From a virus, in the IMG/VR virus record IMGVR_UViG_3300024346_008124, positions 1 through 64,000 of that record: 64,000 nucleotides of DNA; one strand, given 5' to 3'. The notes beneath the pieces were generated by a model. It saw only the letters and a list, made by a program, of their open reading frames with translations, was not told the origin of the DNA and did not search any database. A program made the translations under genes and the position numbers. Positions 12,296-33,097 of this stretch are shown piece after piece (positions within the stretch are counted from its first letter, which is position 1; each line of letters starts with the position of its first letter).

Positions 12296-12514
12296 ATGAA
12301 CGCTACAGCAGAAGATTATAAGTCCGTAATATTTTCTGGTTGCTCTATTGAATCAAACAAGGTTCATATTTGCAACCTAAGAAACTACAATAAAAGACTT
12401 GTTGCAGATAATGAATATCAAGTTTGGTCTGATAAACATAAAGAATACAAGCTATACAAAAACATAGATGACGCTGTTAATAAATTTATAGAACTAAAAG
12501 GAAAACGAGCATGA
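12296..12514 (+). CDS. small hypothetical protein between the dnaE halves
   Basis: 72-aa ORF with SD GGAG and ATGA overlap with the next gene. Confidence 0.7.
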   Translation: MNATAEDYKSVIFSGCSIESNKVHICNLRNYNKRLVADNEYQVWSDKHKEYKLYKNIDDAVNKFIELKGKRA

Positions 12515-14734: not shown

Positions 14735-14756
14735 TAACAATAAACGAGTTATCTTA

Positions 14757-16403
14757 ATGAAGAAAAAAATACTTTTTTGCTCAGAAGCCTCTTGGTACGC
14801 AACAGGATATTCTGTGTACACCAAAGAAGTTTTATCTAGACTGTGTCAGATAGAGGATTTCGAGGTGGCCGAGCTAGGATGTTATGCAGAAAGTTCAGAC
14901 GCGCAGGATAAAAACATTCCTTGGAAATTTTATGGAAACAAACCTTCTCCAAACAGCCCTGAATTTGAGTCATATAAGAGCAACCCAAGCGCCCAGTTTG
15001 GAGAGCAGTCTTTTAATTCTGTGTTATTAGACTTTAAACCAGATATCGTAATGGATATTAGAGATTGGTGGATGATAGAATATCAGCAAAGATCTCCTTT
15101 CAGAGACTTTTTTCATTGGTCGATTATGCCTACTGTGGACGCAGAGCCGCAGGCTGACCAGTGGATTAATACGTATTCTTCTGCGGATTCCGTGTTTGCA
15201 TATTCTGAATTTGGTAGAGACACTATGCTTAAACAATGCGATAGTATAAAGTTTGTTGACATAGCATCGCCAGCGGCTAGCAATAGCTTTACACCAGCAC
15301 CGAATAAGCGCGACCATAAAATTAATATGGGCATTTCTCCAGACTCTTTCATTGTAGGAACGGTCATGAGAAACCAAAGAAGAAAGCTGTATCCAGATTT
15401 AATGGAGTCGTTTAGAAGATTTCTAGACCAAACCCAAGATCCAAACGCTTTCCTTTATTGTCACACATACTACCCAGATGTTGGTTGGGATCTACCTAAT
15501 CTAATTTATGAAAATGGGTTGTCTGGTAGAGTCTTGATGACATACAAGTGTAAATCCTGTAAAAATATATCTGTTGATTTCTTCAAGGATGCCGTTAGCG
15601 CCTGTGATAAATGTAAATCATTCTCCAATGCCATAGTGGGAATATCTAATCCCATAGACGAAAAAGAGCTTTCTGATATATACAATTGTTTTGATATTTA
15701 CGTTCAGTATGCTAATAGCGAAGGGTTCGGTATGCCCCAGCTAGAGGCTGCCAACTGCGGGCTACCCGTTATTTCTACTCACTACTCAGCTATGGAGTCT
15801 GTTGTTAAAAATATTGGTGGATATGGGGTTATACCTAAGCAATACTATGTAGAATGTGAAACAGGGTGCAAGAGGGCTATACCAGATAACGATTCGTTCG
15901 TTGGTCTTTTGACTCAGCTTCATAGTGAAAAAGATAAGTTAAAACAGTTAGGGTCTCAAGTTAGAGACAGAGCGTTAGAAAACTATAGCTGGGACAAGAC
16001 CGCCGATGCTTGGGCTAAACATTTTAACGCAGTAGAAAAAAAAGACCCAGCGACTACGTGGTATTCTCCGCTAAATGCGCCAGAGCCAGAAATAAACATG
16101 TTACAAAATCCAGAATCTATGGCGCATTCTGTAAATCATATATTTACTAATGTGTTACATAAGCCAGAATGGATAGGTGGTTATTTATGGAAGAGGGTTT
16201 TGAGAGACGTAACCTTCGGCTATAGGTGCGAAAACATGGATAAACAGTTCTATTTTAACGAATCTCATAAAAAAACCAACACTTCAAATGCTCCGTTCTG
16301 CCTAGAGGACGCATATAAAGAAATGATAAACTTTAGAAAGCAATTAAATAACTGGGAACACTCCAGAGTGCAACGTAACCAACAGGAGATGGAAAATAAA
16401 TGA
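14757..16403 (+). CDS. GT4 glycosyltransferase with zinc-ribbon insertion
   Basis: TGYS, VMRNQRRK, SEGFGMPQLEAANCGLPVI, YSWD; insert CKSC...CDKC. Confidence 0.9.
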   Translation: MKKKILFCSEASWYATGYSVYTKEVLSRLCQIEDFEVAELGCYAESSDAQDKNIPWKFYGNKPSPNSPEFESYKSNPSAQFGEQSFNSVLLDFKPDIVMDIRDWWMIEYQQRSPFRDFFHWSIMPTVDAEPQADQWINTYSSADSVFAYSEFGRDTMLKQCDSIKFVDIASPAASNSFTPAPNKRDHKINMGISPDSFIVGTVMRNQRRKLYPDLMESFRRFLDQTQDPNAFLYCHTYYPDVGWDLPNLIYENGLSGRVLMTYKCKSCKNISVDFFKDAVSACDKCKSFSNAIVGISNPIDEKELSDIYNCFDIYVQYANSEGFGMPQLEAANCGLPVISTHYSAMESVVKNIGGYGVIPKQYYVECETGCKRAIPDNDSFVGLLTQLHSEKDKLKQLGSQVRDRALENYSWDKTADAWAKHFNAVEKKDPATTWYSPLNAPEPEINMLQNPESMAHSVNHIFTNVLHKPEWIGGYLWKRVLRDVTFGYRCENMDKQFYFNESHKKTNTSNAPFCLEDAYKEMINFRKQLNNWEHSRVQRNQQEMENK

Positions 16404-17494
16404 AAGTCTTATATATAGGAAATTATAAAGACGGCACAGGTTGGGCGAACGCTTGTATAAATAATATATTGGCTTTAGACGCTGCGGGAATAGAGGTTGT
16501 TCCTAGAGCCATAACTTTTAACAAAGCAGACGGAGAGTGTCCAAAAAGAGTTTTAGAACTAGAGGGAAATTCTGAATCTGGTTGCGACACATGTATTCAA
16601 CATACGCTTCCCCATTTATACTCGTACAATTCTAAGTTTAAAAATATAGGATTTTTAGCTACAGAAACTAGTAACTTTATAGAAAGTTCTTGGCAGCATC
16701 ATGCGAATCTTATGGATGAGATATGGGTTCCTACCAAGTCTTGCAAGTCTGCCTGTGTTCATAGTGGTGTTAATAAACCTGTAAAAGTCGCGCCTCACTC
16801 CCTAGACCTCACGCCCTACCAGTCTGAAAAATATAGGCAAGACGGTCCAAAAGTTGATAATCTTGTAAACACATTCAATTTCGCCTTTGTCGGTGAATTT
16901 GTAGAAAGGAAAAACTTACAAGCAATAGCTAGAGCTTTTCATTCAGAATTTGATTACGACGAACCCGTAAATCTATATGTAAAAACTTCTGCGCAGTCGT
17001 TAGAATATGTTCAAAATTATTTCGAGCAAGTGAGAAATGGTTTAAAAATAAGAAAGAAATACAAAGAAGAAATTGTTATATGCGGAAGCTTACCAAAAGA
17101 AAACTACATATCAGTATTGTCTCAGTGCCACTCTTTTGTTATGCCTAGTCGCGGAGAGGGTTTTTGTATTCCAGCGCTAGAGGCGATGGCGATGGGCATT
17201 CCTGTAATCTACACAAAGGGAACAGGCATGGACGACTTCTGCTCAGGTTCTGCGGTAAAATCTTCAGAGGTTCCGTGCTTTGGCGCTATGTCAACACTAG
17301 ATTATTTATACACCTCTAATGAAAAATGGAGAGAGGTAGATATTGAAGACTTGATGGTATGTATGCGAAATGCATTTATGAGGTGGAAAACAAAGTGGGC
17401 TACAGAAGATAGTCACCAAGCCTTAAAGGGTGCTGAAAAATTTTCTCATAAAGAGGTAGGATTAAAATTAAAGGAGATACTAAATGACCGCTAG
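16400..17494 (+). CDS. GT4 glycosyltransferase
   Basis: TGWA, DEIWVP, ERKN, PSRGEGFCIPALEAMAMGIPVI. Confidence 0.9.
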   Translation: MKVLYIGNYKDGTGWANACINNILALDAAGIEVVPRAITFNKADGECPKRVLELEGNSESGCDTCIQHTLPHLYSYNSKFKNIGFLATETSNFIESSWQHHANLMDEIWVPTKSCKSACVHSGVNKPVKVAPHSLDLTPYQSEKYRQDGPKVDNLVNTFNFAFVGEFVERKNLQAIARAFHSEFDYDEPVNLYVKTSAQSLEYVQNYFEQVRNGLKIRKKYKEEIVICGSLPKENYISVLSQCHSFVMPSRGEGFCIPALEAMAMGIPVIYTKGTGMDDFCSGSAVKSSEVPCFGAMSTLDYLYTSNEKWREVDIEDLMVCMRNAFMRWKTKWATEDSHQALKGAEKFSHKEVGLKLKEILNDR

Positions 17495-18509
17495 TGCAAG
17501 CCAGAGAGCCATAAGATCAATAATGCGTAAATGTGATCCTGAAAGAAAGCTAAACATATTAACATTCGCCACGCACGAAAGATATGAAGAAAATCTTTGT
17601 AAAACTGGTCATAACTTTTATTCATTAGCGATTGGCAAGACTTGGGATACAGACTATGCTCCGGTTCCAGACAACTATCATATCATCAATACTATACCGG
17701 ACTACGTTGATTTTGATCTAATCTTGACACATACTTCATGTGACAGAATGTTTCAGGCACATCAACACTTAACCGGTTTAGATATTTCTAGCGGCAATAA
17801 AACAGGCATCCCCATTCTTAGGCATACCCATGTTCTTCCTGACGTTAGGTTTGACGTAGCTGCTCAGATTGCAGCGTTTCAACAGTATCCAAGAGACAAA
17901 GACTCATTTATATCTGAATACAACATGGGCGCTTGGGGTATGGTTAGCGGAACTTCTACTGGGGTTGTAGAACATGGCGTAAACACAGACTTTTGGAATG
18001 ATGGAAGGTTAAAAAGGGATGCCGTCTGCCTTTCTGTTGTGAATGATTGGCCCAATAGAGATTGGTGTTGCGGATTTAACCTTTGGAAGCAGACAGTTCA
18101 GGGTCTGCCTGTAAAAGTCTATGGTAAAAGTCCGGGGTTTTCTGAGCCTGCAAACTCTACAGAACACTTGAGAGAAATTTATCAATCTTCAAGAATATTC
18201 TATAATACCTCTTTACACTCCCCTGTTCCCAGTGTATTATTAGAAGCTATGGCTTGTGGTTGCGCTATTGTTTCTACCTCCAACTGCATGATACCAGAAA
18301 TAATCGAGAACGGCAAGAATGGACTAATTTCAAATGACCCCAAAGAACTGCGCAGCTTCTTAGAGCTTCTTCTTAAAGATGAAAACTTAGCAAAAGAACT
18401 AGGTGGCAACGCTAGAAAAACCATAGTTGAAAAATATAATCTCGAAAGATTTGTTGATAGCTGGAACAATCTACTACACTCTACAGTAAATGAATACAGG
18501 AACATATAA
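17484..18509 (+). CDS. GT4 glycosyltransferase
   Basis: HGVNTDFW, PSVLLEAMACGCAIVS, EIIENGKNG, NARKTIVEKY. Confidence 0.9.
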   Translation: MTASASQRAIRSIMRKCDPERKLNILTFATHERYEENLCKTGHNFYSLAIGKTWDTDYAPVPDNYHIINTIPDYVDFDLILTHTSCDRMFQAHQHLTGLDISSGNKTGIPILRHTHVLPDVRFDVAAQIAAFQQYPRDKDSFISEYNMGAWGMVSGTSTGVVEHGVNTDFWNDGRLKRDAVCLSVVNDWPNRDWCCGFNLWKQTVQGLPVKVYGKSPGFSEPANSTEHLREIYQSSRIFYNTSLHSPVPSVLLEAMACGCAIVSTSNCMIPEIIENGKNGLISNDPKELRSFLELLLKDENLAKELGGNARKTIVEKYNLERFVDSWNNLLHSTVNEYRNI

Positions 18510-18925
18510 TGAAAATTTATCTATCTACCAAACCGCCCTCAGACATGTCATTCAAACACTGCTCAAATCTAGCTGCGTTAGAGGGCATGGCTTTAGATGG
18601 CGAAGTAACGAGTCTAACAATAGATTGTTTTCTTTCTTCGTTTTCTTTTCAGGAAGTCAAAGAAGCGGTGCAAGAAATACTAAAAAAATGTAGAATGAAG
18701 TGTGAGGTTAATATTATAGAAATGGATTCTAATGTAATATTTAGGCTTTACACAAGGGGAGAGATACAGCTAGACTATTTAAACAACTTGTTTTTTAATA
18801 GTCCGAAAAAAAGCGTCCTTAATACAGACACTATACAGTCCTGCATTCCTGATAATTTTTCCATAGAAGAAAAGTCAATATCTAGCCAAGGATTTTCAAG
18901 CATTAAAATTAGGAGAGTAGTATGA
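18509..18925 (+). CDS. degenerate class I SAM-methyltransferase-like protein
   Basis: DGEVTSLTIDCFLSSF...VQEILKKCRMKCEVNIIEMD resembles the C-terminal half of Methyltransf_11; no SAM-binding GxG seen. Confidence 0.4.
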   Translation: MKIYLSTKPPSDMSFKHCSNLAALEGMALDGEVTSLTIDCFLSSFSFQEVKEAVQEILKKCRMKCEVNIIEMDSNVIFRLYTRGEIQLDYLNNLFFNSPKKSVLNTDTIQSCIPDNFSIEEKSISSQGFSSIKIRRVV

Positions 18926-19722
18926 AACCGGAAACACACTGTGAAGGATGCGTATTTGCCGTAGAAAGAGACGGTAAGCAATCAGGATGTCAATTATACA
19001 GATCTGAAAAACTGGGGATAAAAGATAACGATGAAGACTTCTATACGCTAGAAAGGTACTGCAACACCTTTCGCCCAGAAGAGTGGCTAACAACGCTATC
19101 TTTAAAAGACCACAAGAATAGACATCAAGTAGTACTAAAAGAAATAGTCTCTAGGGTTGGATTTTTTGTTGTTTTAGATACATCTAAAGAAAACGCCATA
19201 CAAGACCTGCAAATAACCATAGAGGACATAAAAAACCAAACACTGCACAGGGCTAGGTACGTGGTGGTTGTAACAGATAAAACTGAATACAATGAAGAAA
19301 TTCAAAAGATGCTCGTAGAGAATTTTGACCACGACAAAACACTGCATCACCTAATAAAAGTTTCTCACATACCAGAAAAAAAGATGCTTTTAATTGATGA
19401 ATGCTTTAAACACGCTAAAAACGGATGGGTTTATACCACAACTTCCGGGCAGCGGGTTGATCAAGAGTTGATAGAGAAAATAAACCAAAGAGTAAATATA
19501 GATATGAAAAGACTATCTATAGTAAAGCCATACGAAGGTTTTAATGGACTATTGTTTTCAACTCCGCTTTTTAAATTTTTAAACGGAAATAATAAAACCG
19601 CTTATGAAACAGAAGATGGCGAACTTGGATTTGACGATAGACCCTTTTTAGAAAAGGTTGAAGACATGAAAGACGAAACTGGCGAAACTCTTATTACTTG
19701 GGAGGAATTTAATGCTTCCTAA
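18922..19722 (+). CDS. hypothetical protein (Cys-rich N-terminus, possible degenerate GT-A fold)
   Basis: CEGC...C...C N-terminus; IEDIKNQT...YVVVV resembles GT2 strands. Confidence 0.5.
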   Translation: MKPETHCEGCVFAVERDGKQSGCQLYRSEKLGIKDNDEDFYTLERYCNTFRPEEWLTTLSLKDHKNRHQVVLKEIVSRVGFFVVLDTSKENAIQDLQITIEDIKNQTLHRARYVVVVTDKTEYNEEIQKMLVENFDHDKTLHHLIKVSHIPEKKMLLIDECFKHAKNGWVYTTTSGQRVDQELIEKINQRVNIDMKRLSIVKPYEGFNGLLFSTPLFKFLNGNNKTAYETEDGELGFDDRPFLEKVEDMKDETGETLITWEEFNAS

Positions 19723-20446
19723 AATTGCTATTATCTGTGCTAACTATAACTACGGACGGTTTATTATTGAAGGCATGGAAAGTATAAAAAAACAACACTA
19801 CAAAGGCGAGATAAGGCTTTACATTGTAGACGATGGGTCTTCTGACGATTCATGGGAAAAAATATCAGAATTTGCAGAGAAAGATCCTGACTTTGTTTTT
19901 GCTCAAAGAATACAAAACTCAGGCGCTAGTGTGGCCCGTAACACAGCGTTAGCTGCCGCTTGGGAATGGGCTGATATATTTGGCATCCTAGATGCTGATG
20001 ACTCCTATAAGCTGAACAAGGTTGAAAAACTAGTAGAAAAGCTAATGGAATACCCAGAAGTTGGCGTTGCTTATGGAGACTATGATATTCATAGAAACTA
20101 TAGCGATAAACACTATGTAAAATATGAAGCTAAAGACTCATATTGCAGACGAGGATTATCTCAAAGTTGCATGATCCATAGTAACGCGCTTATCAAAAAA
20201 GAGTATTTAGAAAAGGTTGTGCTTCCTAATGGAGAAATCTTTGATAGTAGATTACATGGTCCCGCTAGCCGGGGTTTTATAGGATGTACAGAAGACTACG
20301 ACCTATGGCTAAGGCTGTCTCATTACTGTGTGATCTGCCATGTGCCAGAGTCTCTTTCTATAGTAAACGAAAGTGGTCAAAATCAATCTATGAAAATGAC
20401 ACCGGAAATCTTTCAACAACAAGCTCAGATCTTAGGTAGTAGATAG
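19712..20446 (+). CDS. GT2 glycosyltransferase
   Basis: IICANYNYGRFI, IVDDGSSD, NSGASVARN, ILDADD, EDYDLWLR. Confidence 0.92.
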   Translation: MLPKIAIICANYNYGRFIIEGMESIKKQHYKGEIRLYIVDDGSSDDSWEKISEFAEKDPDFVFAQRIQNSGASVARNTALAAAWEWADIFGILDADDSYKLNKVEKLVEKLMEYPEVGVAYGDYDIHRNYSDKHYVKYEAKDSYCRRGLSQSCMIHSNALIKKEYLEKVVLPNGEIFDSRLHGPASRGFIGCTEDYDLWLRLSHYCVICHVPESLSIVNESGQNQSMKMTPEIFQQQAQILGSR

Positions 20447-21174
20447 TGGCAAGATTTACAAGAGAAATAACAACCAGAGTAAAAAGTAAAAATAACAAAG
20501 ACGATATGGCTGTTATAATACTTTCTGCCGGTGTTGGAAGTAGGATAAAATCAAACGAGCCTAGAAGCTTAATAAAAATAGGCAGCAAAACCCTAATAGA
20601 GCATCAGATAGATTTAATAAACAACAATTTAGTAAACCATGAAATTATTGGAGCATTTGGTTATGCTATAGAAAAAATTATAAAGAAGATACATGGAAAA
20701 ATAAGGGTTGTAGAAAATCAAGTTTATGAAGATACAAATAACTCAGAAAGTCTTAGGCTTGCTGTAAACAATACTAATAAAAATAATATAATGTTTTTTC
20801 ATGGGGACTTATATTTTAACGATTCTATATTTAAAAACATAGATTTTAAAAAATCTTTTTTAGTTATAGATAGAAAAGATATGATGAAATCTAAAGAGAT
20901 AGGGGTCACTATACAAAACAATAAAGCCACAATATTGTCATATGGACTTCCTACAAAGTGGTGTCAAACAGCATTTATCACAGGTAGGGAGTTGAAGATA
21001 TTAAGGAGTATTTTATCAAAACTTCAAGGCAGTCAGAAAAAAATGCTGTCTTTTGAGATAATAAATAAAATGATTTCTATGGGAGCGAATTTTGAATGTT
21101 ATGAACCAAACGATATGTCTATAGTAGAAATAGACTGCATAAAGGACTTAAAGAATGAAAATTTTAATCTGTAG
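20446..21174 (+). CDS. sugar/phosphocholine-type nucleotidyltransferase (LicC/NTP_transf_3-like)
   Basis: IILSAGVGSR, PRSLIKIG, NNSESL, HGDL, EID. Confidence 0.8.
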   Translation: MARFTREITTRVKSKNNKDDMAVIILSAGVGSRIKSNEPRSLIKIGSKTLIEHQIDLINNNLVNHEIIGAFGYAIEKIIKKIHGKIRVVENQVYEDTNNSESLRLAVNNTNKNNIMFFHGDLYFNDSIFKNIDFKKSFLVIDRKDMMKSKEIGVTIQNNKATILSYGLPTKWCQTAFITGRELKILRSILSKLQGSQKKMLSFEIINKMISMGANFECYEPNDMSIVEIDCIKDLKNENFNL

Positions 21175-22207
21175 CGATGGTCGTCACGCACACTACTTCC
21201 AAAGAATGGCTTGGGCAAACGCTTTCGCCGCCGTGGGGTATCAAGTTATGCTGTGGGACTGCAAGACCGTCCCGGCTTTTGACATATTTGATCAGTTTGA
21301 ACCCGATGTGTTTTTGGGGCAGGCTTATAACCTAGACGAAGCTTTAATAAAGTGTATATATGAAAGACCACACCTGAAGGTGGGTCTACGTGCTGGAGAC
21401 TGGGGAGACCAAGAAAAAGAAGTAGACAAGTCTAGGTACAACATTTTGTTCTGCTCCAAGAAAGAAAAAGAACTACTTAAAAAACTCAAAGACGAAACGG
21501 GAAAACCAGACTTTGTACATATTCATTATAATGATGCCGACATTAAAAGAACTCATAACTATTTTGAAACCATCGGAATCAAACCTGTGTCGTTGATGAT
21601 GTGTGCAGATACAGCGGTTTACGGAGACGCTCAGGTTGATCAAAGGCTAACATGTGATATAGGCTTTGTGGGTGGCTATTGGCCTTACAAGGGGCAAGTG
21701 ATTGACCGCTATCTTACTCCACTATTACATCCTCTTGACCGTTACAAGGTAAAAATATTTGGAAACCAGCCTTGGGGGGTAAATCAATACTGCGGACTCA
21801 TAGACGATGGCGATGTCAAAAACCTTTTTAAGTCTGCGAAGATATGTCCAAATCTTAGCGAGCCTCACGCACAGGTATACGGCATAGATGTAAATGAAAG
21901 AATATTTAAGATTCTATATGCGGGCGGCTTCTGTATTAGCGATAATGTAGAAGCATACAAGATGTTTGGTGATGGTATTGTAATTGCAGATTCTCCAGAT
22001 GACTTTAGAGATAAGATTGAATACTATGCAAGCACTGATAAAGGGACGATAGATAGATCTTTTATTATTAAAAATGGTCAGGATTTTGTTACCGAAAACC
22101 ATACTGGCTTTCATAGGATTTCAACAATCATGGAAGCTGTTGGATACAGCGATGTAGCTGGGGAGATTTTGAAAGCTTACAAGGATAAATTAAATGAGCA
22201 AAAGTAA
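21155..22207 (+). CDS. CgeB-like GT-B glycosyltransferase
   Basis: DIGFVG, SAKICPN, VNERIFKILYAGGFCISD, HT. Confidence 0.82.
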   Translation: MKILICSDGRHAHYFQRMAWANAFAAVGYQVMLWDCKTVPAFDIFDQFEPDVFLGQAYNLDEALIKCIYERPHLKVGLRAGDWGDQEKEVDKSRYNILFCSKKEKELLKKLKDETGKPDFVHIHYNDADIKRTHNYFETIGIKPVSLMMCADTAVYGDAQVDQRLTCDIGFVGGYWPYKGQVIDRYLTPLLHPLDRYKVKIFGNQPWGVNQYCGLIDDGDVKNLFKSAKICPNLSEPHAQVYGIDVNERIFKILYAGGFCISDNVEAYKMFGDGIVIADSPDDFRDKIEYYASTDKGTIDRSFIIKNGQDFVTENHTGFHRISTIMEAVGYSDVAGEILKAYKDKLNEQK

Positions 22208-24734: not shown

Positions 24735-24735
24735 T

Positions 24736-26339: not shown

Positions 26340-27262
26340 CAATCGACTTCCGCAATATGTGGGGAGGATTCTTTAAGCACGACAACCTGATAACAAATAC
26401 CCTGTCGCTAGAATATGAAGTCTCTGTAGACGAGCAAAATCCAGACATAGTGGTTTGTCAGGTGTGTCCCAAGAGCCACGGCGCTCCCGATCCCCAATCG
26501 CTTACCCAGTCGTTAAAAGGTAAGTCTAAAATAATCTATTGGCTAGTAGAGTCTATAGATAGAACGGGAGATCCCGACTATTCAAGCTGTGACTTTTCTT
26601 TTTCTTCCTGTCAACACCAAGATCAGAGAAACGTAAGGGTTCCGCTTTGGTCTATGTATGTTAACTGGTTTAAAGACAAGCAAGAAAGCTATATAGAGGA
26701 AAGAAATCAATCATTTCTAGTTTCGCCAACCAAGCTATTGCAGGCAAGAGATCATTCTCAGAAGAATAAGTTTTGTTGTATATTGACAAATAACGACATG
26801 GGCATGAGAAAAGAGGTTTATCCAGCATTTATAGGGCTTGGGATAGAGAACGGATTGCTAGTAGAAAGTAGGGGGCGATACTTAACAAATATGCCAGCTA
26901 TATTAGATGGCGAAAAAGATAAGCTAGAATATATAGATGCATTTAAGTTTAACCTTTGCTACGATAACGGAGAGGCCGCCGGTTGGGTTACTGAAAAACT
27001 AATTCACCCAATATATCAGGGATCTATACCTATCTACTGGGGATGTAGTAACGTTGCTTCAGAGTTTAATCAGGATAGATTTATCCACGCAAGAAACTTT
27101 GACAATCTACAGTCTATGTGGGACAAAGTTATGGAAATAAACTATAATAGAGACTTATTCTTAGATATTCAGTCACAGCCCTGTTTTCCAAACAACACAA
27201 TTCCTGATTGCGCCAATCCAGAATTTTTGATAGAAGAATTTAAGAAAGTGGTGGAAGCATGA
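26324..27262 (+). CDS. GT10 alpha-1,3/4-fucosyltransferase-like
   Basis: DFSFS, RVPLW, KFC, KFNLCYDN...GWVTEKL...IPIYWG, FNQDRFI. Confidence 0.85.
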   Translation: MSKPLTIDFRNMWGGFFKHDNLITNTLSLEYEVSVDEQNPDIVVCQVCPKSHGAPDPQSLTQSLKGKSKIIYWLVESIDRTGDPDYSSCDFSFSSCQHQDQRNVRVPLWSMYVNWFKDKQESYIEERNQSFLVSPTKLLQARDHSQKNKFCCILTNNDMGMRKEVYPAFIGLGIENGLLVESRGRYLTNMPAILDGEKDKLEYIDAFKFNLCYDNGEAAGWVTEKLIHPIYQGSIPIYWGCSNVASEFNQDRFIHARNFDNLQSMWDKVMEINYNRDLFLDIQSQPCFPNNTIPDCANPEFLIEEFKKVVEA

Positions 27263-28419
27263 CAATAAAACTATGTTCTGACATAATAGACAAACAAGAT
27301 ATAAACAACTTGATATCTTGGCTAGAGACTATGCCGAGGCTGACAAAAGGCCAAAAAACGTTAGAGTTTGAACAGATGTTTTCTTCCTACGTTGGGTGTG
27401 AGCATTCTATTTTTTGCAACTCAGGGTCTTCTGCGAACCTACTCATCACTTCTGCTCTAATGCAAAGCGGCATGATGAAAAATGATAAAATTATAGTACC
27501 TCAAGTATCTTGGTCTACAACCGTGTTTCCGGCTATGCAGCTAGGTCTGAAGCCGATAATGTGTGATTGTAACCTTTCAAACCTAGGTATTGATCTAGAT
27601 CATTTTGAATGGCTGGTTAAAAACCATAAACCCGCCGCCGTTATATTGGTGCATGTCTTAGGGCTAGAATCAAATATAGAAAAGGTGACGCAAATATGTG
27701 AGGATCATAATGTTATACTAGTGGAGGATACTTGCGAAAGCTTGGGTTCTTCTGTAGCCGGAAAGAAACTTGGAAATTTTGGGCTAGCTAGTTCTTTTTC
27801 TTTTTACTTTGGGCATCATATATCAACAATTGAAGGAGGTATGGTTTGCACAAATGATAAAGAGTTTGCAGATATTATTAAAATGATAAGAAGTCATGGG
27901 TGGGATAGAGATTTAGATGAAGAGGCAAAACTTAAATACAAGAAACAGTACGGCGTTAAAGAGTTTGACTCTTTGTATAAGTTTTATTATCAGGGTTTTA
28001 ATCTTAGGTCTACTGATTTGCAGGCGGTCATTGGTATAAATCAAATGTCTAAAATAGACAACATATCAAACGTAAGACAAAGAAACTATAATCATTACCT
28101 AAAGTCTATAAAAAGTGAACTATGGAAACCTCACTCACGACAGGAGGTGGTTTCTAATATGGGATATCCATTAATTGTTGGAAATAGAGAGGATTTATCT
28201 AGCGCTTTAGACGATAATGGTGTAGAATGTAGACCACTAGTCTCTGGAAGCATGGGCGCTCAACCAGCTTGGAAAAAAGAGTACGGAGAACTGACTATGC
28301 AGAACGCATCTGTAGTAAATAACAATGGTATGTATGTCCCCAATCATCAAGACTTAACAATTCAAGATATTGACAAAGTTTGCAAAATAATTAACGACAC
28401 AGGAAATCCGCATGTCTGA
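27259..28419 (+). CDS. ColD-like GDP-4-keto-6-deoxymannose 3-dehydratase (DegT family, His instead of Lys)
   Basis: NSGSSANL, EDTCES, SFYFGHHISTIEGG, RSHGW; 386 aa, no RfbH-type Fe-S insertion seen. Confidence 0.8.
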   Translation: MTIKLCSDIIDKQDINNLISWLETMPRLTKGQKTLEFEQMFSSYVGCEHSIFCNSGSSANLLITSALMQSGMMKNDKIIVPQVSWSTTVFPAMQLGLKPIMCDCNLSNLGIDLDHFEWLVKNHKPAAVILVHVLGLESNIEKVTQICEDHNVILVEDTCESLGSSVAGKKLGNFGLASSFSFYFGHHISTIEGGMVCTNDKEFADIIKMIRSHGWDRDLDEEAKLKYKKQYGVKEFDSLYKFYYQGFNLRSTDLQAVIGINQMSKIDNISNVRQRNYNHYLKSIKSELWKPHSRQEVVSNMGYPLIVGNREDLSSALDDNGVECRPLVSGSMGAQPAWKKEYGELTMQNASVVNNNGMYVPNHQDLTIQDIDKVCKIINDTGNPHV

Positions 28420-29230
28420 AATAATCAATCTAATACCAAACAATCCAGATGTACACGTTTATTCTAGAGCCGTAGAGTTATTGTCTGAAAAGCTGGAAGA
28501 AGACTACTCTTTCATAATAAACGTCTGGGATCACGAAATGCCAAAAGATACTAAGTATCCTAAGATTCTTGTATCGACCTCTGATGAGGCTCATAAGATG
28601 CCTAGCCAAGCCTATGATGGCAGCTATGTGCATGTGTTTAAGCAATATCAACCCATGATAAACACAGACGACCCCCTTTCTATAATAACTTCTGACAAAG
28701 TTACCGCCATACCCTTGTGCGAGCTAGATGGTATAGAAGATAAACAAATACCAATCTTGGAAAGAGAATACGACTGGTCTTGGATGGGGCAATTTGACCC
28801 CTACAGAAGAGTAGAATTTAGGAATTCTATAACACAACTAGAAAAAAACGAAAAGTTAAAAAACAAAGTTTTGTGGTATGAGGGATGGAACAATGGAGAA
28901 TCTACAGAATCTTACTGTGACGTTTTAAATCAGACAAAGATTATGCCCGTTCCTCGCGGTTCAGGCAGTCTAGAGTCATTTAGATTTTTTGAAGCTGCTA
29001 GATGTGGCTGTATACCCGTTTGCACTCAGCAGCCTCATGTAGATTTTTATAACGTTGCTCCTTATTTTTCAATTTCTTCTTGGTCTCACTTTGGAGAATT
29101 TGTAGAAAACATGAAACAAAGACAAAGCGAGATGGAATACCTGTCTGAACAGGTTAAAAACTGGCACAAATACTTCTGCTCCCCTCAAGGGCTTGCCGAC
29201 TTTATGTACAAGAGGATTAAAAATGTATAA
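28412..29230 (+). CDS. exostosin (GT47)-like glycosyltransferase
   Basis: YDWSWMGQ, PRGSGSLESFRFFEAARCGCIPV; paralog of 9834-10760. Confidence 0.8.
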   Translation: MSEIINLIPNNPDVHVYSRAVELLSEKLEEDYSFIINVWDHEMPKDTKYPKILVSTSDEAHKMPSQAYDGSYVHVFKQYQPMINTDDPLSIITSDKVTAIPLCELDGIEDKQIPILEREYDWSWMGQFDPYRRVEFRNSITQLEKNEKLKNKVLWYEGWNNGESTESYCDVLNQTKIMPVPRGSGSLESFRFFEAARCGCIPVCTQQPHVDFYNVAPYFSISSWSHFGEFVENMKQRQSEMEYLSEQVKNWHKYFCSPQGLADFMYKRIKNV

Positions 29231-29903
29231 AACATATGTCATGCACTATAAGCCACTACGAGACAGAAAGGAATTTATACTAAAGCAACTGTCTTCAAAG
29301 GGTATAGAAAATTTTGAATTTATAACGGATTTTGATAAAGATGTTTTGACAGAAAAAATCATAGAAGATTACTACCTAGAAGATGAAGAAAAACACTTCA
29401 AAGAGTGCCAAGTCTCTATGAGACAAGGAGAAAAATACCAATTCCAAAAAATGAAGTACGCCAGCATATCCCTTTGTATAAAGCATGTTGAGGCTTTTGA
29501 AAAAACAAAACAGCAAGAAGAAGATTTCGCACTATTTCTAGAAGATGATTGTAGATTTCATCAAGATTCTACATCTTTAGAAGAAATAATATCAAAAGCG
29601 CCACAAGACTGGGATGCCATAGTAATAGGTGGCCCATTTAAACATGATATATGCCAATACAACTTCATAGTCGGAGATGACAATTCAGCCTACTTAAAAG
29701 CTAAACATCCCGCGACTAATACGACTAGTAGTATACTCTACAGAAAGTCTACAGCAGAAAAAATAATGCCGTATGTGAAACCCTTTTCACTACCTATTGA
29801 TTGGCAGCTTAACTTTGCTTTCTGGAAAGCTAAATTAAACGTGTATCACATTTATCCATATATATCCACACAGGGAGACTTTAAGAGTACCGCAAATGAT
29901 TAA
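29223..29903 (+). CDS. GT25 glycosyltransferase
   Basis: YVMH...DRK, SLCIKH, LFLEDD, LPIDW; ATG at 29223 preferred. Confidence 0.82.
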   Translation: MYKTYVMHYKPLRDRKEFILKQLSSKGIENFEFITDFDKDVLTEKIIEDYYLEDEEKHFKECQVSMRQGEKYQFQKMKYASISLCIKHVEAFEKTKQQEEDFALFLEDDCRFHQDSTSLEEIISKAPQDWDAIVIGGPFKHDICQYNFIVGDDNSAYLKAKHPATNTTSSILYRKSTAEKIMPYVKPFSLPIDWQLNFAFWKAKLNVYHIYPYISTQGDFKSTAND

Positions 29904-30729
29904 TGTTAAATATGTAGGAAGGCTTGGAAACAACATGTTTCAGTATTCTCTAGGTAGGATACTAGCAGAGTCTATGGGTTTGAGACTTAATTCACCGCCC
30001 ATTCCAGAGTTCTCCAGAACTTTTGAACTAGTAAACCCAGAGCGAATAGAACCCTATGAGCCAATTGTTTTTAATGACCACGTTTTAAGAATAAATGATG
30101 AGCCTGTATCTGTAGAAGATATAGTTAATCTGAAAGATAAAGCCGTATACCTCGATGGATGGTTTCAAAGATACGAATATTACAAGCCCTATAAACAAAA
30201 AATTAGAGAATGGCTGGACATAGAAGATATAGACGTAGGACAGACGGATAACGATGCGATTGTTCACTTACGTATGGGCGATTGTATAACGGGAGACTTA
30301 GCAAAAGACCCATATGTGATGCCTCATGGGTACTTTAACAAAGCTCTAGAGATTATGGATTTTGATAATCTTTTCATATGCTCAGATCCAGAGACTTTAA
30401 ATCATCCACTATTTAAAAAATACATGGAGAATTTTAAAGAATACTGTCCCACACTACTATGTGGAGATAAAATAGAAGATTTTAGAGCCATAAAATCGTT
30501 TGATAAAATAGTCATGTCTCAAAGTACATTTTCTTGGTGGGGTGCATTCTTATCAAACGCTTCTCAAATATTTGTTCCGGTTCCAGAGCCGGGACCGCAC
30601 ACCAACGAATGGAGCCTAGAGAGCAGAAACGTTGCCGTTTTTGTAGATGACGAAGATAGATACAGCTACTTAAAGCAGTATGGGACAGAGTGGAAACTAG
30701 TAAACCTTAAAGATATACCGGAGACATAA
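29896..30729 (+). CDS. GT11 alpha-1,2-fucosyl/colitosyltransferase-like
   Basis: GRLGNNMFQY, GWFQ, HLRMGD, STFSWWGAFL. Confidence 0.9.
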   Translation: MINVKYVGRLGNNMFQYSLGRILAESMGLRLNSPPIPEFSRTFELVNPERIEPYEPIVFNDHVLRINDEPVSVEDIVNLKDKAVYLDGWFQRYEYYKPYKQKIREWLDIEDIDVGQTDNDAIVHLRMGDCITGDLAKDPYVMPHGYFNKALEIMDFDNLFICSDPETLNHPLFKKYMENFKEYCPTLLCGDKIEDFRAIKSFDKIVMSQSTFSWWGAFLSNASQIFVPVPEPGPHTNEWSLESRNVAVFVDDEDRYSYLKQYGTEWKLVNLKDIPET

Positions 30730-30730
30730 A

Positions 30731-31306
30731 ATGGAAAACAATTTTTATAACAAAGAGTATTGGTACGATAATTCACAAGAGCATTCAGACGTAGATAACT
30801 ATGGAGAAAATTACTACGCTTACAAAATATATAAAAACTTAATACTAAAACTTAAAGACATACCAGATACAGGATATATTGTTCTACTAGGAACAAACAG
30901 ATGTGTATCGTTTAATTTACTATGTGACCACTTCGGAAAAGATAGGTGTATCGGTTTTGATATTCACAATCCCACAAATCACCCGCGCGTTAAAATTAAA
31001 GACTGCACAAAATTATCAGAACTAGACAATATACCCATAGCATTTTGCCACAACGACTTGGGAAGTTTTCCAAAAACTCCAAAATTAAAAATACATGGGC
31101 AAAATTGGGCTGCCGCAAATATAATTAATGGAGGATATTTTTTAGGAAGGAATAATTTAAATGCTGCTAAATTTAAATCAGAAGAGTTTATGAAAGACTT
31201 AGGATTTGAAAACAAGCAATTTAAGGATATTGTAAATGATTACGATATGACAGACTTTGAAGAATCTTGCATAGAGGGACACATGATCTCAAGGAGAACC
31301 GTATGA
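30731..31306 (+). CDS. hypothetical protein, possible SAM-methyltransferase-like fold
   Basis: IVLLGT...CIGFDI...INGGYF pattern; very AT-rich. Confidence 0.5.
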   Translation: MENNFYNKEYWYDNSQEHSDVDNYGENYYAYKIYKNLILKLKDIPDTGYIVLLGTNRCVSFNLLCDHFGKDRCIGFDIHNPTNHPRVKIKDCTKLSELDNIPIAFCHNDLGSFPKTPKLKIHGQNWAAANIINGGYFLGRNNLNAAKFKSEEFMKDLGFENKQFKDIVNDYDMTDFEESCIEGHMISRRTV

Positions 31307-31965
31307 GCATAATAAAAGACTACAATCTAGATAAATACAACTTCTGTGAAGAGGTAAAGAATATTTTTTATGTTGATGAATTAAAAAATCTACACATAGA
31401 AAGAAGCGATTTATTACCTCAAGATAAATTAAACTTTGACAATGAGACAAAAACAGACTTTCATTCCACCTTTTACGGGGGTTTAAAGTCTAAAAAAGGA
31501 AAGGCTATAAAAGATATTTACAATAGCTTCATTTCCGAGATTGTTGCACCTATGTTTAATAGAAGTTTCGTGTATCAGGCTTTTCCAAGCTTTAGGGTCC
31601 ACATACCCAACGACCAAGCTGTGCATAAATGGCACTATGATTCTGACGAAAACCACAACCACCCCGATTGGGAGATAAACTTTCAGCTAGCGCTTACTAA
31701 TATGTACGAAAGTAACGCTATGTGGATAGAATCGGTTCCGGGGCTTAGAGACTTTAAACCTTTGGAAATGAATCTTGGGCAATTCGCAATTTTTTATGGC
31801 AATCAGTGCGCTCATGGGAATAAGGAGAATACAACTGGTAACACAAGGGTTAGTATGGATTTTAGGGTTATCCCATATGAAAAATATGATGAATCTAAAG
31901 CAAAGAATTCCGCTACCGCAAATACAAAATTTGTTATTGGAGAATATTATAGGCTGTATAAATAA
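31303..31965 (+). CDS. 2OG-Fe(II) oxygenase (StrG-like)
   Basis: HYD facial-triad motif, distal HGN, RVSMDFR; ATG 31303 with AAGGAG SD. Confidence 0.78.
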   Translation: MSIIKDYNLDKYNFCEEVKNIFYVDELKNLHIERSDLLPQDKLNFDNETKTDFHSTFYGGLKSKKGKAIKDIYNSFISEIVAPMFNRSFVYQAFPSFRVHIPNDQAVHKWHYDSDENHNHPDWEINFQLALTNMYESNAMWIESVPGLRDFKPLEMNLGQFAIFYGNQCAHGNKENTTGNTRVSMDFRVIPYEKYDESKAKNSATANTKFVIGEYYRLYK

Positions 31966-32615
31966 TGTACACTAAAACACAAGATGTAATAGAACTACTA
32001 GAGAAGCAAGGTTACAGTATAAGTGACCCTTGGGATATCGTGGAAGCTTTTGAAGACAAGGTCGCAAAATACGCAGGCAGTAAGTATGCGGTAGCTACAG
32101 ACAGTTGTACCAATAGTATATTTCTATGCTTAAAGTATCTGCAAGCAACCGGCAAAGTGGAAGTCCCGAAGAAGACATATTTATCTGTACCTCAAAGTGT
32201 TATCCACGCAGGATGTGAGGTTGAATTTACTGATCTTGAGTGGTCTGGAGCCTATAGACTAAACCCATATCCAATTGTAGACAGCGCCACGAAGTTTACT
32301 AAAGGTATGTATATTGAAGATTCGTATCAATGTCTGTCTTTTCACATTAGAAAAATACTACCCATTGCTAAAGGTGGTATGATATTGACAAACGACAAGA
32401 GTGCTGTAGAGTGGCTTAAACTAGCAGAGTACGAAGGAAGAGATAGGCGTGTCCCTCACGACGAAATGCCGCCCCCAGCCATGCTGGGATGGAATATGTA
32501 CATGCCCCCTGAGCAGGCCGCTAGGGGCATAGAACTGTTTGAACAAGCTAAAGACTTTAACGAAGACTCTGGCGGTTCTTGGAAATATAAAGACATATCA
32601 CACTATAAATACTAA
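31965..32615 (+). CDS. short DegT/DnrJ-family PLP aminotransferase
   Basis: FEDKVAKYAG, DSCT, DSA, SFHIRKILPIAKGGMILT with the catalytic Lys; only 216 aa. Confidence 0.8.
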   Translation: MYTKTQDVIELLEKQGYSISDPWDIVEAFEDKVAKYAGSKYAVATDSCTNSIFLCLKYLQATGKVEVPKKTYLSVPQSVIHAGCEVEFTDLEWSGAYRLNPYPIVDSATKFTKGMYIEDSYQCLSFHIRKILPIAKGGMILTNDKSAVEWLKLAEYEGRDRRVPHDEMPPPAMLGWNMYMPPEQAARGIELFEQAKDFNEDSGGSWKYKDISHYKY

Positions 32616-32626
32616 TAGGAATTTTA

Positions 32627-33097
32627 ATGATAAATGTATCAGCTTTAATAGGAGACTTAGGACCATCACAAAAGTCTTTTTATCTAATAAAAGCCTTTAA
32701 CGAGCTTTCTAGAAATCCAAACCTATCCTGTACGGCTTTTGTTTTAAAGATATCGCCGCCATATACAAAACCTCTTTTTTCATGCTCCAGCGTTTCGTTT
32801 CTTTCTAACTATAACGGTGTATGTTTAGCCACTAACCTAGAAGAAGCTCAAATTCTTCTTAAATCAAACAACAATTCTAAAAAATATCTTTACCTGTGGG
32901 ATATGGAATGGATTAAAAGACCAATGAACTACTCTCAGGTCTGCGATATACTGCTAGATGATAGACTAAGTATTATATCAAGAAGCGACTCGCACTCCTG
33001 CATGATAGAAAACTACTGTAATAAACCTCCAATAGCCACCATACAAGATTGGAACCCGTCCCAAATTTTAGAAATACTGGAAAAAACCCATGCCTAA
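32627..33097 (+). CDS. stand-alone GT-B N-terminal-like domain protein
   Basis: CLATNLEEA...KKYLYLWDMEW resembles the WsaF-type N-terminal Rossmann half. Confidence 0.45.
   Translation: MINVSALIGDLGPSQKSFYLIKAFNELSRNPNLSCTAFVLKISPPYTKPLFSCSSVSFLSNYNGVCLATNLEEAQILLKSNNNSKKYLYLWDMEWIKRPMNYSQVCDILLDDRLSIISRSDSHSCMIENYCNKPPIATIQDWNPSQILEILEKTHA

Follow-up and report, generated by a model that had tools for sequence, protein, structure and literature searches.

A glycosyltransferase-rich island with a conserved core and a mosaic cassette in an uncultured marine tailed phage, and virion proteins as its putative acceptor

Which molecule would a tailed phage decorate with the products of an ~18-kb run of sugar genes placed beside its DNA polymerase? 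The run occupies positions 14757–33097 of the window (the whole analysed stretch of 64,000 nucleotides) and comprises 22 ORFs without interruption, every junction being an overlap of 1–40 nt or a gap of 1–11 nt; all features given below lie on the + strand. Its source is an uncultured marine tailed phage frequent in ocean metagenomes, represented here by a partial metagenomic contig of 79,097 bp without terminal repeats, while the whole genome is about 150 kb long. The initial sequence-only reading described some 20 genes, about 13 of them glycosyltransferase (GT)-like, between DNA polymerase and annealase in a genome with a tape measure gene. The unbroken run stands, with 12 GTs supported (three GT4, GT2, CgeB-like, GT10, GT11, GT25, two GT47/RXYLT1-like and two GT-A folds) and a further two to four possible, and so does the tape measure gene (PF10145, E 7.7e-30). 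The left neighbour encodes the C-terminal portion of DnaE, which is split here (13166–14734; Pfam DNA_pol3_finger, E 3.6e-44, and HHH_6), and the first GT4 gene lies directly 3′ of it in all eight relatives with downstream sequence. The annealase was not confirmed: the gene bordering the cassette on the right (33090–33869), kept in relatives at 51–94%, is homing-endonuclease-like (PHROG 559 ‘HNH endonuclease’, E 3.3e-11; PHROG 3339 ‘homing endonuclease’, E 1.7e-5; Pfam DUF559, E 0.001), and for the conserved protein at 33862 no family was found. The island itself is divided into a conserved core of ten genes (14757–23991) and a mosaic cassette (23988–32615).

A chimeric assembly, or a false join between host DNA and a phage contig, comes to mind because the contig is partial and metagenomic and because the right third of the cassette (29896–31965) is without homologue among the fetched loci. 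Against it, the region of 14–34 kb is tiled at no less than 99% identity by contigs from four unrelated sequencing runs, among them one of 10,431 bp covering 23136–33566 and one of 4,854 bp crossing the DnaE/GT4 junction, and contigs of independent runs from different studies cross both junctions and cover the cassette in full. The ten-gene core follows DnaE in about 60 independent viral contigs, and GC content is uniform (0.34–0.39 in the island versus 0.35–0.39 in the replication genes). Contiguity and synteny, which the sequence-only reading had left for verification, are thus both established; the misjoin, refuted by the spanning contigs and the synteny, retains practically no probability, and the island is genuine phage DNA.

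Core gene 1 (14757–16403; GT4, Pfam Glycos_transf_1, E 5.6e-10) carries a four-Cys insert and a C-terminal extension; C265/C268/C283/C286 and E322...E330 are invariant in 28 homologues, and identity across 51 loci is 39–77%. It is followed by two further GT4 genes, namely gene 2 (16400–17494; Glyco_trans_1_4, E 2.6e-14), kept in relatives with an identity correlated to that of DnaE-C (r = 0.95), and gene 3 (17484–18509; Glycos_transf_1, E 6.6e-17), whose closest solved structures are BshA-type, PglA and TarM GT4 enzymes. The small conserved protein of gene 4 (18509–18925; 27–62% identity in 34 loci) found no match in Pfam, NCBIfam and PDB searches and by eye may resemble the C-terminal half of a methyltransferase. 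Genes 5 (18922–19722) and 10 (23131–23991, the last of the core) have no Pfam match and are assigned to the GT-A fold from AlphaFold2 models (pLDDT 92.5 and 92.9) and Foldseek. The former, with an N-terminal four-Cys module (C7, C10, C23 and C47 invariant), matches heparosan synthase, SunS/ThuS, SpsA and TarS (E 3.5e-6 to 1e-5), and the latter is GnT-I/SpsA/TarP-like (1fo8, E 9e-7; D87 and D88 invariant in 33 homologues). Three unclassified GT-A enzymes had been proposed; these two hold, and the cassette proteins at 23988 and 24736 are possible members only. The GT2 enzyme of gene 6 (19712–20446; Glycos_transf_2, E 1.2e-23) is soluble (maximum KD19 0.96) and, unlike GtrB, misses the C-terminal membrane helices. 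Gene 7 (20446–21174; NTP_transf_3, E 1.3e-7) encodes a MobA/IspD/GlmU-like sugar-phosphate nucleotidyltransferase, which in NCBIfam gave only sub-threshold matches to cytidylyl- and uridylyltransferases. Gene 8 (21155–22207; Glyco_trans_1_2, PF13524, E 1.6e-16), a CgeB-like GT-B, is present in 61 viral loci at 37–91% identity, and metagenomes contain no fewer than 662 clusters of it (90% identity). Gene 9 (22194–23159; Epimerase, E 6.6e-55) is a GDP-L-fucose synthase-like epimerase/reductase of Fcl/ColC type, its match to NCBIfam GDPFucSynFcl (E 6e-81, 272 bits) staying below the cut-off of 500.

The cassette opens with a possible GT-A-like, DUF6492-like protein (23988–24734; sub-threshold DUF6492, E 0.0019), common to seven related loci at 55–60%, and with a possible nucleotide-diphospho-sugar transferase (24736–25587), for which nothing was found in Pfam or PHROG and the protein atlas gave a lead only: virus-dominated clusters whose closest named families are PF03407, GT8 and DUF6492 at 0.90–0.91. 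Two A075L/GT114-like GTs, both sub-threshold in Pfam, are located at 25584–26339 (Exostosin_GT47, E 4.7e-7; RXYLT1_C, E 6.5e-6) and 28412–29230 (RXYLT1_C, E 2.8e-5; GT47, E 1.1e-3). Between them lie a GT10 of the alpha-1,3-fucosyltransferase family (26324–27262; Glyco_transf_10, E 3.4e-10; FucT_N, E 3.2e-6) and a ColD-type GDP-4-keto-6-deoxymannose 3-dehydratase (27259–28419; DegT, E 1.3e-72), and close homologues of this GT10 (53–67%) occur only in loci also carrying a ColD homologue. The closest solved structure of the dehydratase is E. coli O55 ColD (2gms, E 1.6e-62), and a His stands at the PLP-lysine position of aminotransferases, aligned with the position that is mutated in the ColD variant chain 3b8x. 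The claimed GT25 gene (29193–29903) is a weak match (Glyco_transf_25, E 1.5e-4, 22.2 bits versus the Pfam cut-off of 24), common to eight relatives at 33–49%, and the GT11 gene of the alpha-1,2-fucosyl/colitosyltransferase family (29896–30729; Glyco_transf_11, E 1.7e-7) is almost confined to the present genome among the fetched loci. Two ORFs without family follow, 30731–31306 (no match in Pfam, NCBIfam, PHROGs and all fetched loci) and 31267–31965 (none in Pfam, PHROGs and all fetched loci). A short DegT-like protein of 216 aa (31965–32615; DegT, E 1.9e-20, N-terminal part of the profile only) has stand-alone homologues of 201 aa in two relatives, whereas in another its counterpart is the C-terminal portion of a protein of 452 aa. 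The right end is marked by a conserved small protein (32627–33097; 15 homologues, 30–66% identity, 12 invariant residues), for which Pfam, PHROG and PDB searches returned nothing. The announced nucleotide-sugar and tailoring enzymes were identified by profile matches: the nucleotidyltransferase (20446), the Fcl-like (22194) and ColD-like (27259) enzymes and, in addition, the short DegT-like protein (31965).

The two parts differ in their history. Identities of core genes follow that of DnaE-C (r = 0.77–0.96, 34–51 loci), catalytic-type motifs are invariant, and of the 30 population SNPs listed within the island 21 leave the protein unchanged; for these reasons the core appears to be ancestral and under selection. 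Since the core transferase family was met in only 2 of 185,579 species genomes, both times on small MAG contigs with conflicting taxonomy, the module was not recently borrowed from a host. The cassette is missing in near relatives and partly common to distant ones, cassette proteins across loci (n = 405) form 121 clusters, and the cassettes are rich in tailoring enzymes, including in relatives methyl-, sulfo-, formyl- and acetyltransferases and nonulosonic-acid genes (NeuB). Such diversification would fit a surface-exposed product.

None of the island proteins reaches a Kyte-Doolittle value of 1.6 over 19 residues or has a signal-peptide-like N-terminus. PF02397, PF00953, PF01943 and PF04932 were absent from the contig and from four large relatives, the positive controls having matched; priming transferase, flippase and polymerase/ligase were found neither in the contig nor in the two of these relatives that are near-complete (148 kb, 98–100% complete), and the complete 148-kb relative encodes no protein with more than three hydrophobic segments. 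The reported absence of flippase, Wzy-type polymerase, priming transferase and multi-pass protein is therefore upheld, and no membrane or export partner appeared elsewhere in the contig or the two near-complete relatives. A cytoplasmic pathway agrees with soluble enzymes and a partly own supply of activated sugars, but the missing membrane parts exclude host-surface glycans less than was claimed, because LOS/LPS-core and wall-teichoic-acid transferases, which work as soluble or peripheral enzymes, need no phage exporter: host machinery exports their products.

Judging by homology of enzyme types, with activities and flux conjectured, the phage would make or divert sugar donors, namely GDP-L-fucose via the Fcl-like enzyme, a colitose-type GDP-3,6-dideoxyhexose via ColD and one NDP- or CMP-activated unit via the nucleotidyltransferase. 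Seven conserved GTs (three GT4, GT2, CgeB-like and two GT-A) would build an inner glycan on an acceptor presumably itself conserved across the lineage, and the swappable cassette, here with two A075L-like, GT10, GT25-like and GT11 enzymes, would add a strain-specific outer part. The acceptor would most likely be one or several virion proteins, fibres or capsid decoration, and we give roughly even chances to a cytoplasmic glycan coat laid on the phage’s own virion proteins. Beyond the window, the late operon contains a sulfotransferase (PF13469, E 1.5e-20) and a GT9-like gene directly 3′ of a YadA/UspA1-like fibre gene; the same two genes occur together in four more viral contigs, with a homologous fibre nearby in three of the four, and thus, on these four loci only, the pair travels with the fibre gene. 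Each of the four larger relatives examined encodes a GDP-mannose dehydratase (Gmd) at another place in its genome, and in the complete one it adjoins, on the virion-gene strand, a protein that by eye resembles a ClpP-type prohead protease. The main island sits in the early/replication operon, outside the structural genes, which counts against a virion-protein acceptor; virion proteins are not enriched in N-x-S/T, and no protein-initiating enzyme (GT41-type N-glycosyltransferase, oligosaccharyltransferase) was recognisable. The head genes of this phage are not contained in the partial contig.

Soluble GTs might instead act at the inner membrane face on lipid-linked intermediates of the host (lipid A-core/LOS, undecaprenyl-linked O-units or teichoic acid), displayed afterwards via MsbA, Wzx, ABC exporters and ligase, and such remodelling could block superinfection or re-adsorption of progeny during a long marine infection cycle. 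GT25, GT9, GT10 and GT11 are classic LOS/LPS enzymes, and the GT25-like, GT10, GT11 and GT9-like proteins and the ColD pathway found here are typical of LOS/O-antigen synthesis; being soluble or peripheral, such GTs would do without a phage exporter, the island and early/replication genes form one transcription unit, and cassette diversity recalls O-antigen loci. Yet the seven-GT core co-diverges with the polymerase in relatives down to 36% DnaE identity, suggesting a constant acceptor while hosts presumably change, and the priming transferase, flippase and polymerase/ligase missing even in complete relatives, the near-absence of the core family from species genomes and the lack of an integrase in the contig likewise make remodelling of the host envelope rather unlikely.

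Another cytoplasmic acceptor (a protein of the host or a non-structural one of the phage, a lipid or other small molecule), or release as a free oligosaccharide serving for instance as decoy, osmolyte or matrix, seems decidedly unlikely. The sequence does not fix the acceptor, the conserved proteins at 18509, 32627 and 33862 could be carriers or adaptors, and among the solved structures related to the GT-A proteins are peptide S-glycosyltransferases and teichoic-acid transferases; nevertheless, we know of no precedent for so large a phage investment in a non-virion product, and the fibre-gene linkage of the late-operon pair points to the particle. DNA, named by the sequence-only reading as the alternative acceptor, is highly improbable, even though T4 and MT/5mYOX/GT clusters glycosylate modified bases of phage DNA, a hypermodification that here would evade restriction, and the island lies directly behind the polymerase with a T4 gp1-like dNMP kinase upstream. 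Phage GTs related to LPS/teichoic-acid enzymes are able to attach mono- to trisaccharides to 5hmC (bioRxiv 10.1101/2023.12.21.572611). However, the thymidylate-synthase-like hydroxymethylase is missing in the complete relative and occurs in one of five large relatives, and the search for TET/JBP gave no match, a weak negative as the control genomes lack this family. At least 12 GTs with fucose/colitose, sulfo-, methyltransferases and NeuB exceed any known DNA glycan, and even-depth assembly from ordinary metagenome libraries weakly argues in the same direction.

The reading that virion proteins are glycosylated is favoured because of homology to A075L, the fibre-linked pair and the core co-diverging with replication genes. 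PBCV-1 encodes GMD and a GDP-fucose synthase, as the present phage lineage encodes Gmd and Fcl. Beyond the two GT47-like genes noticed at first, an outlying third copy resides in the replication module (9834–10760; sub-threshold Exostosin_GT47, E 6e-8, and RXYLT1_C, E 5e-7) and is 71–78% identical in nine related loci. By profile comparison all three are homologous to this chlorovirus capsid-glycan enzyme: the alignment of their family (28412 as first sequence) matched PBCV-1 A075L/GT114 structures with E 3.2e-36 over about 215 residues, mainly in the donor-binding half; no position could be assigned to the catalytic base. The two cassette genes are in this way supported as GTs in spite of Pfam scores below cut-off. 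The A075L protein acts in the cytosol as a beta-xylosyltransferase, joining xylose to fucose in the core of the Vp54 capsid N-glycan (PMC11571054). Were virion proteins indeed the acceptor, progeny of the present phage would exit the cell with a glycan coat. Such coats are carried by chlorovirus capsids and mimivirus fibrils, and the particle of this marine phage would be comparable to them.

The island at window positions 14757-33097 (plus strand) is a phage-intrinsic, contiguous operon of soluble glycan-assembly enzymes that comes without phage-encoded export machinery. It belongs to the first 64 kb of a single viral contig of 79,097 bp devoid of terminal repeats, for which the CheckV completeness of 13% was disregarded as being at odds with a complete relative of 148 kb (G001). 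Positions 198-34964 make up one co-directional block on the plus strand, opened by the replication module left of the island, which comprises PhoH, RecA, DnaB, Toprim primase, a T4 gp1-like dNMP kinase, a PD-(D/E)XK nuclease and a split DnaE. The latter is encoded by two genes with a DEDD exonuclease gene in between (10723-14734), the N-terminal one supplying PHP and the catalytic core and the C-terminal one (DnaE-C, the left border of the island) supplying fingers, HhH and OB; this three-gene order is kept in relatives, and in G001 the C-terminal part is apparently split once more (272 and 392 aa). The island itself is filled by 22 ORFs, neighbours of which either overlap by 1-40 nt or are separated by no more than 11 nt. 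From 35076 onward the late module occupies the minus strand and encodes a tape measure protein of 2,620 aa (PF10145, E 7.7e-30), giant ORFs of 3,293, 1,419 and 2,140 aa and, right of the window, genes of the tail and neck, a YadA/UspA1-like fibre and a protein with a ConA-like lectin domain. The 2,140-aa and 3,293-aa ORFs (36441-42863 and 48736-58617, both on the minus strand) are part of the tail-tip module and have no homologue in G001 at E 1e-5, where giant ORFs of 2,022 and 2,461 aa are found at other places in the genome; the 2,140-aa protein carries a lipoyl/HlyD/M23-like barrel segment around residues 1330-1470.

Contiguity of the island with the phage genes is seen in contigs from four independent runs of four studies, none of the runs flagged as a possible source of the studied contig, which tile 14001-34000 at no less than 99% identity; one of them (10.4 kb) spans the entire cassette at 23988-32615 together with the right border, and another crosses the DnaE/GT4 junction. 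The cassette-bearing stretch of 23.5-33.4 kb recurs near-verbatim in marine, seawater and brine runs, which number at least 11 and come from at least nine studies, with no RNA run among those listed. Anchoring by DnaE-C yielded nine IMG/VR contigs, and a GT4 gene lies directly 3' of the polymerase in all eight that have downstream sequence, while anchoring by the CgeB-like gene yielded 61 loci. The idea that the island is an assembly chimera is refuted by the spanning of junction and cassette in independent runs, and, given also the synteny of relatives and the GC content uniform across island and replication genes, its probability is practically nil.

Among the island products (designated here by the start coordinate of the gene), Pfam recognizes three GT4 transferases, one GT2 (19712), one CgeB-like Glyco_trans_1_2, GT10 and GT11, and more weakly a GT25 and two sub-threshold exostosin/RXYLT1-like proteins. 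For two further proteins without family match, 18922 and 23131, structure prediction based on alignments of 30 and 33 homologues gave confident GT-A folds (pLDDT 92.5 and 92.9), one of them having an invariant DD motif and the other an N-terminal four-cysteine module. Profile searches against PDB sequences gave nothing significant for 18509, 18922, 23131, 32627 and 33862, so that the fold assignment of 18922 and 23131 comes entirely from structure prediction, and Foldseek against viral models returned generic GT-A matches only. 23988 (DUF6492, E 0.002) and 24736 (a protein-atlas lead) are possible additional transferases; 30731 and 31267 received no information from any library searched. Thus the translationally coupled run of glycosyltransferases described in the sequence-only reading stands, with 12 supported members in place of about 13, the family calls including the weak GT25. 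The tape measure gene was likewise correctly recognized there, whereas the "annealase" to the right of the island found no support in family and profile searches: the gene at 33090-33869 on the plus strand is homing-endonuclease-like (PHROG 559, E 3.3e-11) and is 51-94% identical in relatives.

Supply of activated sugars is represented in the island by an NTP_transf_3 nucleotidyltransferase, an Fcl-like epimerase/reductase, a ColD-type 3-dehydratase and a short DegT-like protein. The Fcl-like protein 22194 (NCBIfam E 6e-81, under the equivalog cut-off) is the single product of Fcl/ColC type; its gene is part of the core and is present also in relatives without ColD. The closest solved relative of the ColD-type enzyme 27259 is E. 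coli O55 ColD (2gms, E 1.6e-62); where the PLP lysine would be, the phage enzyme has His, and alignment to 2gms reveals His-His in both the phage enzyme and wild-type ColD, the variant chain 3b8x differing at the first. Close GT10 homologues were found only where ColD occurs, which suggests a linked sub-module. The DegT-like protein (31965-32615, 216 aa) keeps the region around the PLP lysine and lacks the C-terminal domain; since this short form recurs in relatives (201 aa, or fused to another domain in a 452-aa protein of locus L066), it is not simply a broken gene. GDP-mannose 4,6-dehydratase (Gmd) is absent from the studied partial contig and present in all four larger relatives examined, which together with the Fcl-like gene points to a lineage encoding the full route from GDP-mannose to GDP-fucose; Gmd of the studied phage would be in the missing half of its genome. 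In G001 Gmd adjoins, on the virion-gene strand, a protein resembling by eye alone a ClpP-type prohead protease. Gmd of the relatives forms two matching halves within one open frame of 726 aa, and their RecA homologue has 700 aa versus 360 aa in the studied phage; the extra lengths of both proteins (G005:C1:2098-4218 and G001 87423-89525) look like insertions into conserved genes, inteins or similar.

Comparison of the locus in related phages divides the island into two parts. The ten core genes (14757-23991) keep the same order in about 60 loci at identities going down to 37-45%, and these identities correlate with that of DnaE-C (r = 0.77-0.96), indicating that the core is ancestral to the lineage and vertically inherited. 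Motif residues of the core transferases are invariant, and 21 of the 30 listed population SNPs within the island are synonymous. The region 23988-32615 is mosaic, being occupied by unrelated genes in the nearest relatives, defined on the left by 92% DnaE-C identity and on the right by locus L014 with 91-94% in flanking genes; three loci with 58% DnaE-C identity (L064, L065 and L067) have seven cassette genes in common with it at 35-67%. The cassette extends over 8.6 kb here and 2.7-7.4 kb in relatives with both borders captured. Clustering of the 405 cassette proteins from 55 loci gave 121 clusters, in which tailoring and sugar enzymes abound: methyltransferases (FkbM and others), sulfotransferases, formyltransferases, acetyltransferases and FdtA-type isomerases, with 4,6-dehydratases, CMP-sugar synthetases and NeuB also frequent. 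The right border consists of the conserved small protein 32627 followed by the conserved homing-endonuclease-like gene 33090, which may promote cassette exchange during co-infection.

A link to a characterized viral enzyme was obtained for three paralogues, 9834, 25584 and 28412. The profile built from them and their relatives (A9) matches the PBCV-1 A075L structures 8q8i, 8avq and 8asa (E 3.2e-36, 128.8 bits), with profile positions 63-278 aligned to chain residues 62-279, i.e., about 215 residues. By this profile match the three proteins are homologous over the GT-B core to A075L, the founder of CAZy family GT114, which is reported mainly in viruses and bacteria (PMC11571054). A075L is a cytosolic, metal-independent beta-xylosyltransferase of the N-glycan of the chlorovirus capsid protein Vp54, to whose conserved core it contributes the xylose on L-fucose (PMC11571054). 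In the A9 family one arginine (profile position about 203) is invariant in 22 of 22 sequences and another (about 149) is present in 15 of 22, and around positions 73-76 no well-conserved acid is seen in this profile-level comparison; the A075L residues of interest are the catalytic base Asp73 and Arg158/Arg208. If the island product coats the virion, the A075L link offers a concrete biochemical entry point, open to test.

Another glycosylation-related locus resides in the late operon beyond the window, on the minus strand (L001:14875-19294, contig 73974-78393), where the YadA/UspA1-like repeat fibre (878 aa) directly precedes two enzyme genes, one GT9-like and one for a PAPS-type sulfotransferase (PF13469, E 1.5e-20). 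For the GT9-like gene neither PDB nor Pfam gave a match, and its label is only a protein-atlas lead: in one neighbouring cluster, 11% of members carry GT9. The pair recurs in four further viral contigs (L100-L103), in three of them with a homologous fibre nearby and in two with a GT25-like gene inserted. In E. coli, adhesin and heptosyltransferase genes are paired as aah-aidA and tibC-tibA, which the phage arrangement recalls, though only as an analogy. N-x-S/T sequons are not enriched in virion proteins beyond z = 2.3. At the place taken by the sulfotransferase/GT9-like pair in the studied phage, G001 (141701-142999, minus strand, within L090-L097) encodes a 432-aa protein of Ser/Thr/Ala/Leu-rich repeats of ~20 aa, many with N-x-T; it is a candidate glycan acceptor.

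What the island builds has to be judged against the absence of export genes, in which the sequence-only reading was borne out. The Kyte-Doolittle maximum over 19 residues does not exceed 1.49 in any island protein, which is under the usual membrane threshold, and no signal-like N-terminus occurs. Families of initiating phosphoglycosyl transferases (WbaP/PglC, PF02397, and WecA, PF00953) are absent from the contig and four large relatives (G000-G003 and G005), having matched 9 and 12 of 14 control genomes, and Wzx (PF01943) and Wzy/WaaL (PF04932) are absent from the same set with positive controls matched. No protein of G001 exceeds three hydrophobic segments, and the absence of an ABC2-type exporter is based on this hydrophobicity scan alone. 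As for gtrABC, there is no membrane protein in or around the island, GT2 is a soluble protein of 244 aa, and no integrase is seen in the contig. The missing membrane proteins had been taken to speak against host-surface glycans; that argument is not decisive, as host exporters could display the product, and remodelling of host LOS, LPS or teichoic acid by this way is a serious rival, though on balance an unlikely one. The earlier alternative of DNA as acceptor, hypermodified by island transferases as in phage clusters of T4 type or MT/5mYOX/GT type, lost ground and is now highly improbable. Two families of enzymes that create the reactive base were looked for. The thymidylate-synthase-like family PF00303, to which a hydroxymethylase-type gene would belong, is missing in G001 and four of five large relatives and present in the remaining one, and the TET/JBP search (PF12851) gave no match, a weak negative as the control genomes lack the family too.

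Virion glycosylation is the best reading of the island, and we give it an even chance. It is favoured by three points: an acceptor that is presumably constant, which suits a phage protein more than structures of the host envelope; the kinship with A075L; and, indirectly, the late genes linked to the fibre. A glycan on some other cytoplasmic acceptor appears quite improbable. Core enzymes would build a constant inner glycan on an acceptor staying unchanged as the lineage diverges, and cassette enzymes would add strain-specific outer sugars; in the studied phage GT10 and GT11 would probably transfer fucose and a sugar of colitose type. A broader version of the virion reading is put forward tentatively, at somewhat below an even chance: a globally abundant lineage of ~150-kb marine tailed phages may perform glycosylation of giant-virus scale, in which a vertical seven-transferase core and the GDP-fucose pathway coat fibres or capsid, an exchangeable cassette with a homing-endonuclease-like border gene switches the outer glycan (fucose/colitose here; in other strains, sugars that are sulfated, methylated or N-acylated, or nonulosonic acids), and GT114 ancestry is common with chloroviruses. 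Virion "glycotypes" would then be a major, unrecognized axis of marine phage diversity.

The glycan system is a lineage-wide core and not an accessory island, and the lineage is common in ocean metagenomes. Public metagenomes contain no fewer than 662 clusters (90% identity) of the CgeB-like core enzyme, the longest contigs measuring about 159 kb. Within 185,579 species genomes its occurrence is confined to two small contigs of MAGs with discordant taxonomy (L098 and L099), which implies that the module is phage-specific. These two MAGs are labelled Candidatus Nitrosopelagicus (an archaeon) and Flavobacteriales, and the contigs are probably mis-binned phage DNA unfit for host assignment. Near-identity DNA search with 10-34.9 kb against 50,697 phage records gave no match, and the best DnaE protein relatives among isolates are about 30-35% identical, hence no cultured relative exists. 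G001, complete with 148,313 bp and terminal repeats, has the same layout and encodes ribonucleotide reductase; its nine tRNA genes include an array of eight (L092:3771-19891, i.e., G001 43.8-59.9 kb), and the studied 79-kb contig has none. With its sugar-nucleotide enzymes and 12 or more transferases, the island takes about 12% of a ~150-kb genome. If its product coats the virion, phage particles in the sea would carry strain-specific glycans with possible effects on adsorption, on adhesion to marine gels, on decay and grazing, and on evasion of defence, and the island would be a rich source of soluble rare-sugar enzymes.

No paper on the phage lineage or the island was found in the literature; newly added here are the GT114 homology, the read-level contiguity, direct searches for export-gene families and the fibre-linked gene pair. 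Among cellular systems, O-antigen and LOS outer-core clusters with colitose (E. coli O55) resemble the island in ColD, the Fcl/ColC-type reductase, GT10/GT11/GT25 and hypervariable content; unlike them and phage gtrABC, it has no WecA/WbaP, Wzx, Wzy/WaaL or GtrA/GtrC-type membrane protein, and in further distinction from gtrABC its GT2 lacks the membrane helices of GtrB and the phage shows no sign of lysogeny. Spore-crust systems of Bacillus (CgeB, SpsA) offer a functional analogy, as they put their glycans on a protein particle within the mother cell, which lyses later; the CgeB-family and SpsA-like folds of the phage are alike at family or fold level only, and the Bacillus system is one of cellular sporulation. 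That viruses glycosylate their own particles is established knowledge in the case of giant viruses and, with only a handful of enzymes involved, of a few mycobacteriophages. The latter are the nearest precedent among phages, though their systems are much smaller and located elsewhere in the genome: such actinobacteriophages reportedly have few transferases each, adjoining structural genes, whereas here at least 12 transferases and sugar-nucleotide enzymes sit in a replication operon conserved across the whole lineage, and of the glycan genes only the GT9-like/sulfotransferase pair lies in the late operon. In the account of Freeman et al. 2023, as cited within PMC12619734, Che8, Corndog and Myrna glycosylate capsid and tail-tube proteins in the cytoplasm by their own transferases. 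In Megavirinae (Mimivirus, Moumouvirus, Megavirus, Tupanvirus), fibril glycosylation is encoded by clusters of 6-33 genes that bring transferases together with pathways for nucleotide sugars; they make rare bacterial-type sugars and have a clade-specific composition (PMC10117803). The phage similarly clusters both gene types with a toolbox differing between relatives, but, in contrast to these viruses of amoebae, has a fixed 10-gene core and a hypervariable cassette with a homing-endonuclease-like border; the likeness seen is one of organization. Together with Megavirinae clusters, the closest system is the Vp54 machinery of PBCV-1 (A075L = GT114, A064R, A111/114R, GMD A118R and GMER A295L). 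Both rely on virus-encoded soluble or cytosolic transferases and GDP-fucose supply (Gmd plus Fcl in the phage lineage), the phage glycan being probably fucose-containing too, as suggested by Fcl, GT10 and GT11 genes, and three phage genes are directly homologous to A075L (E 3.2e-36; PMC11571054). PBCV-1 is a giant virus of algae with scattered genes, whereas the tailed bacteriophage keeps its genes in one operon dominated by GT4 and CgeB-like enzymes, and among chlorovirus transferases the homology shown is that to A075L.
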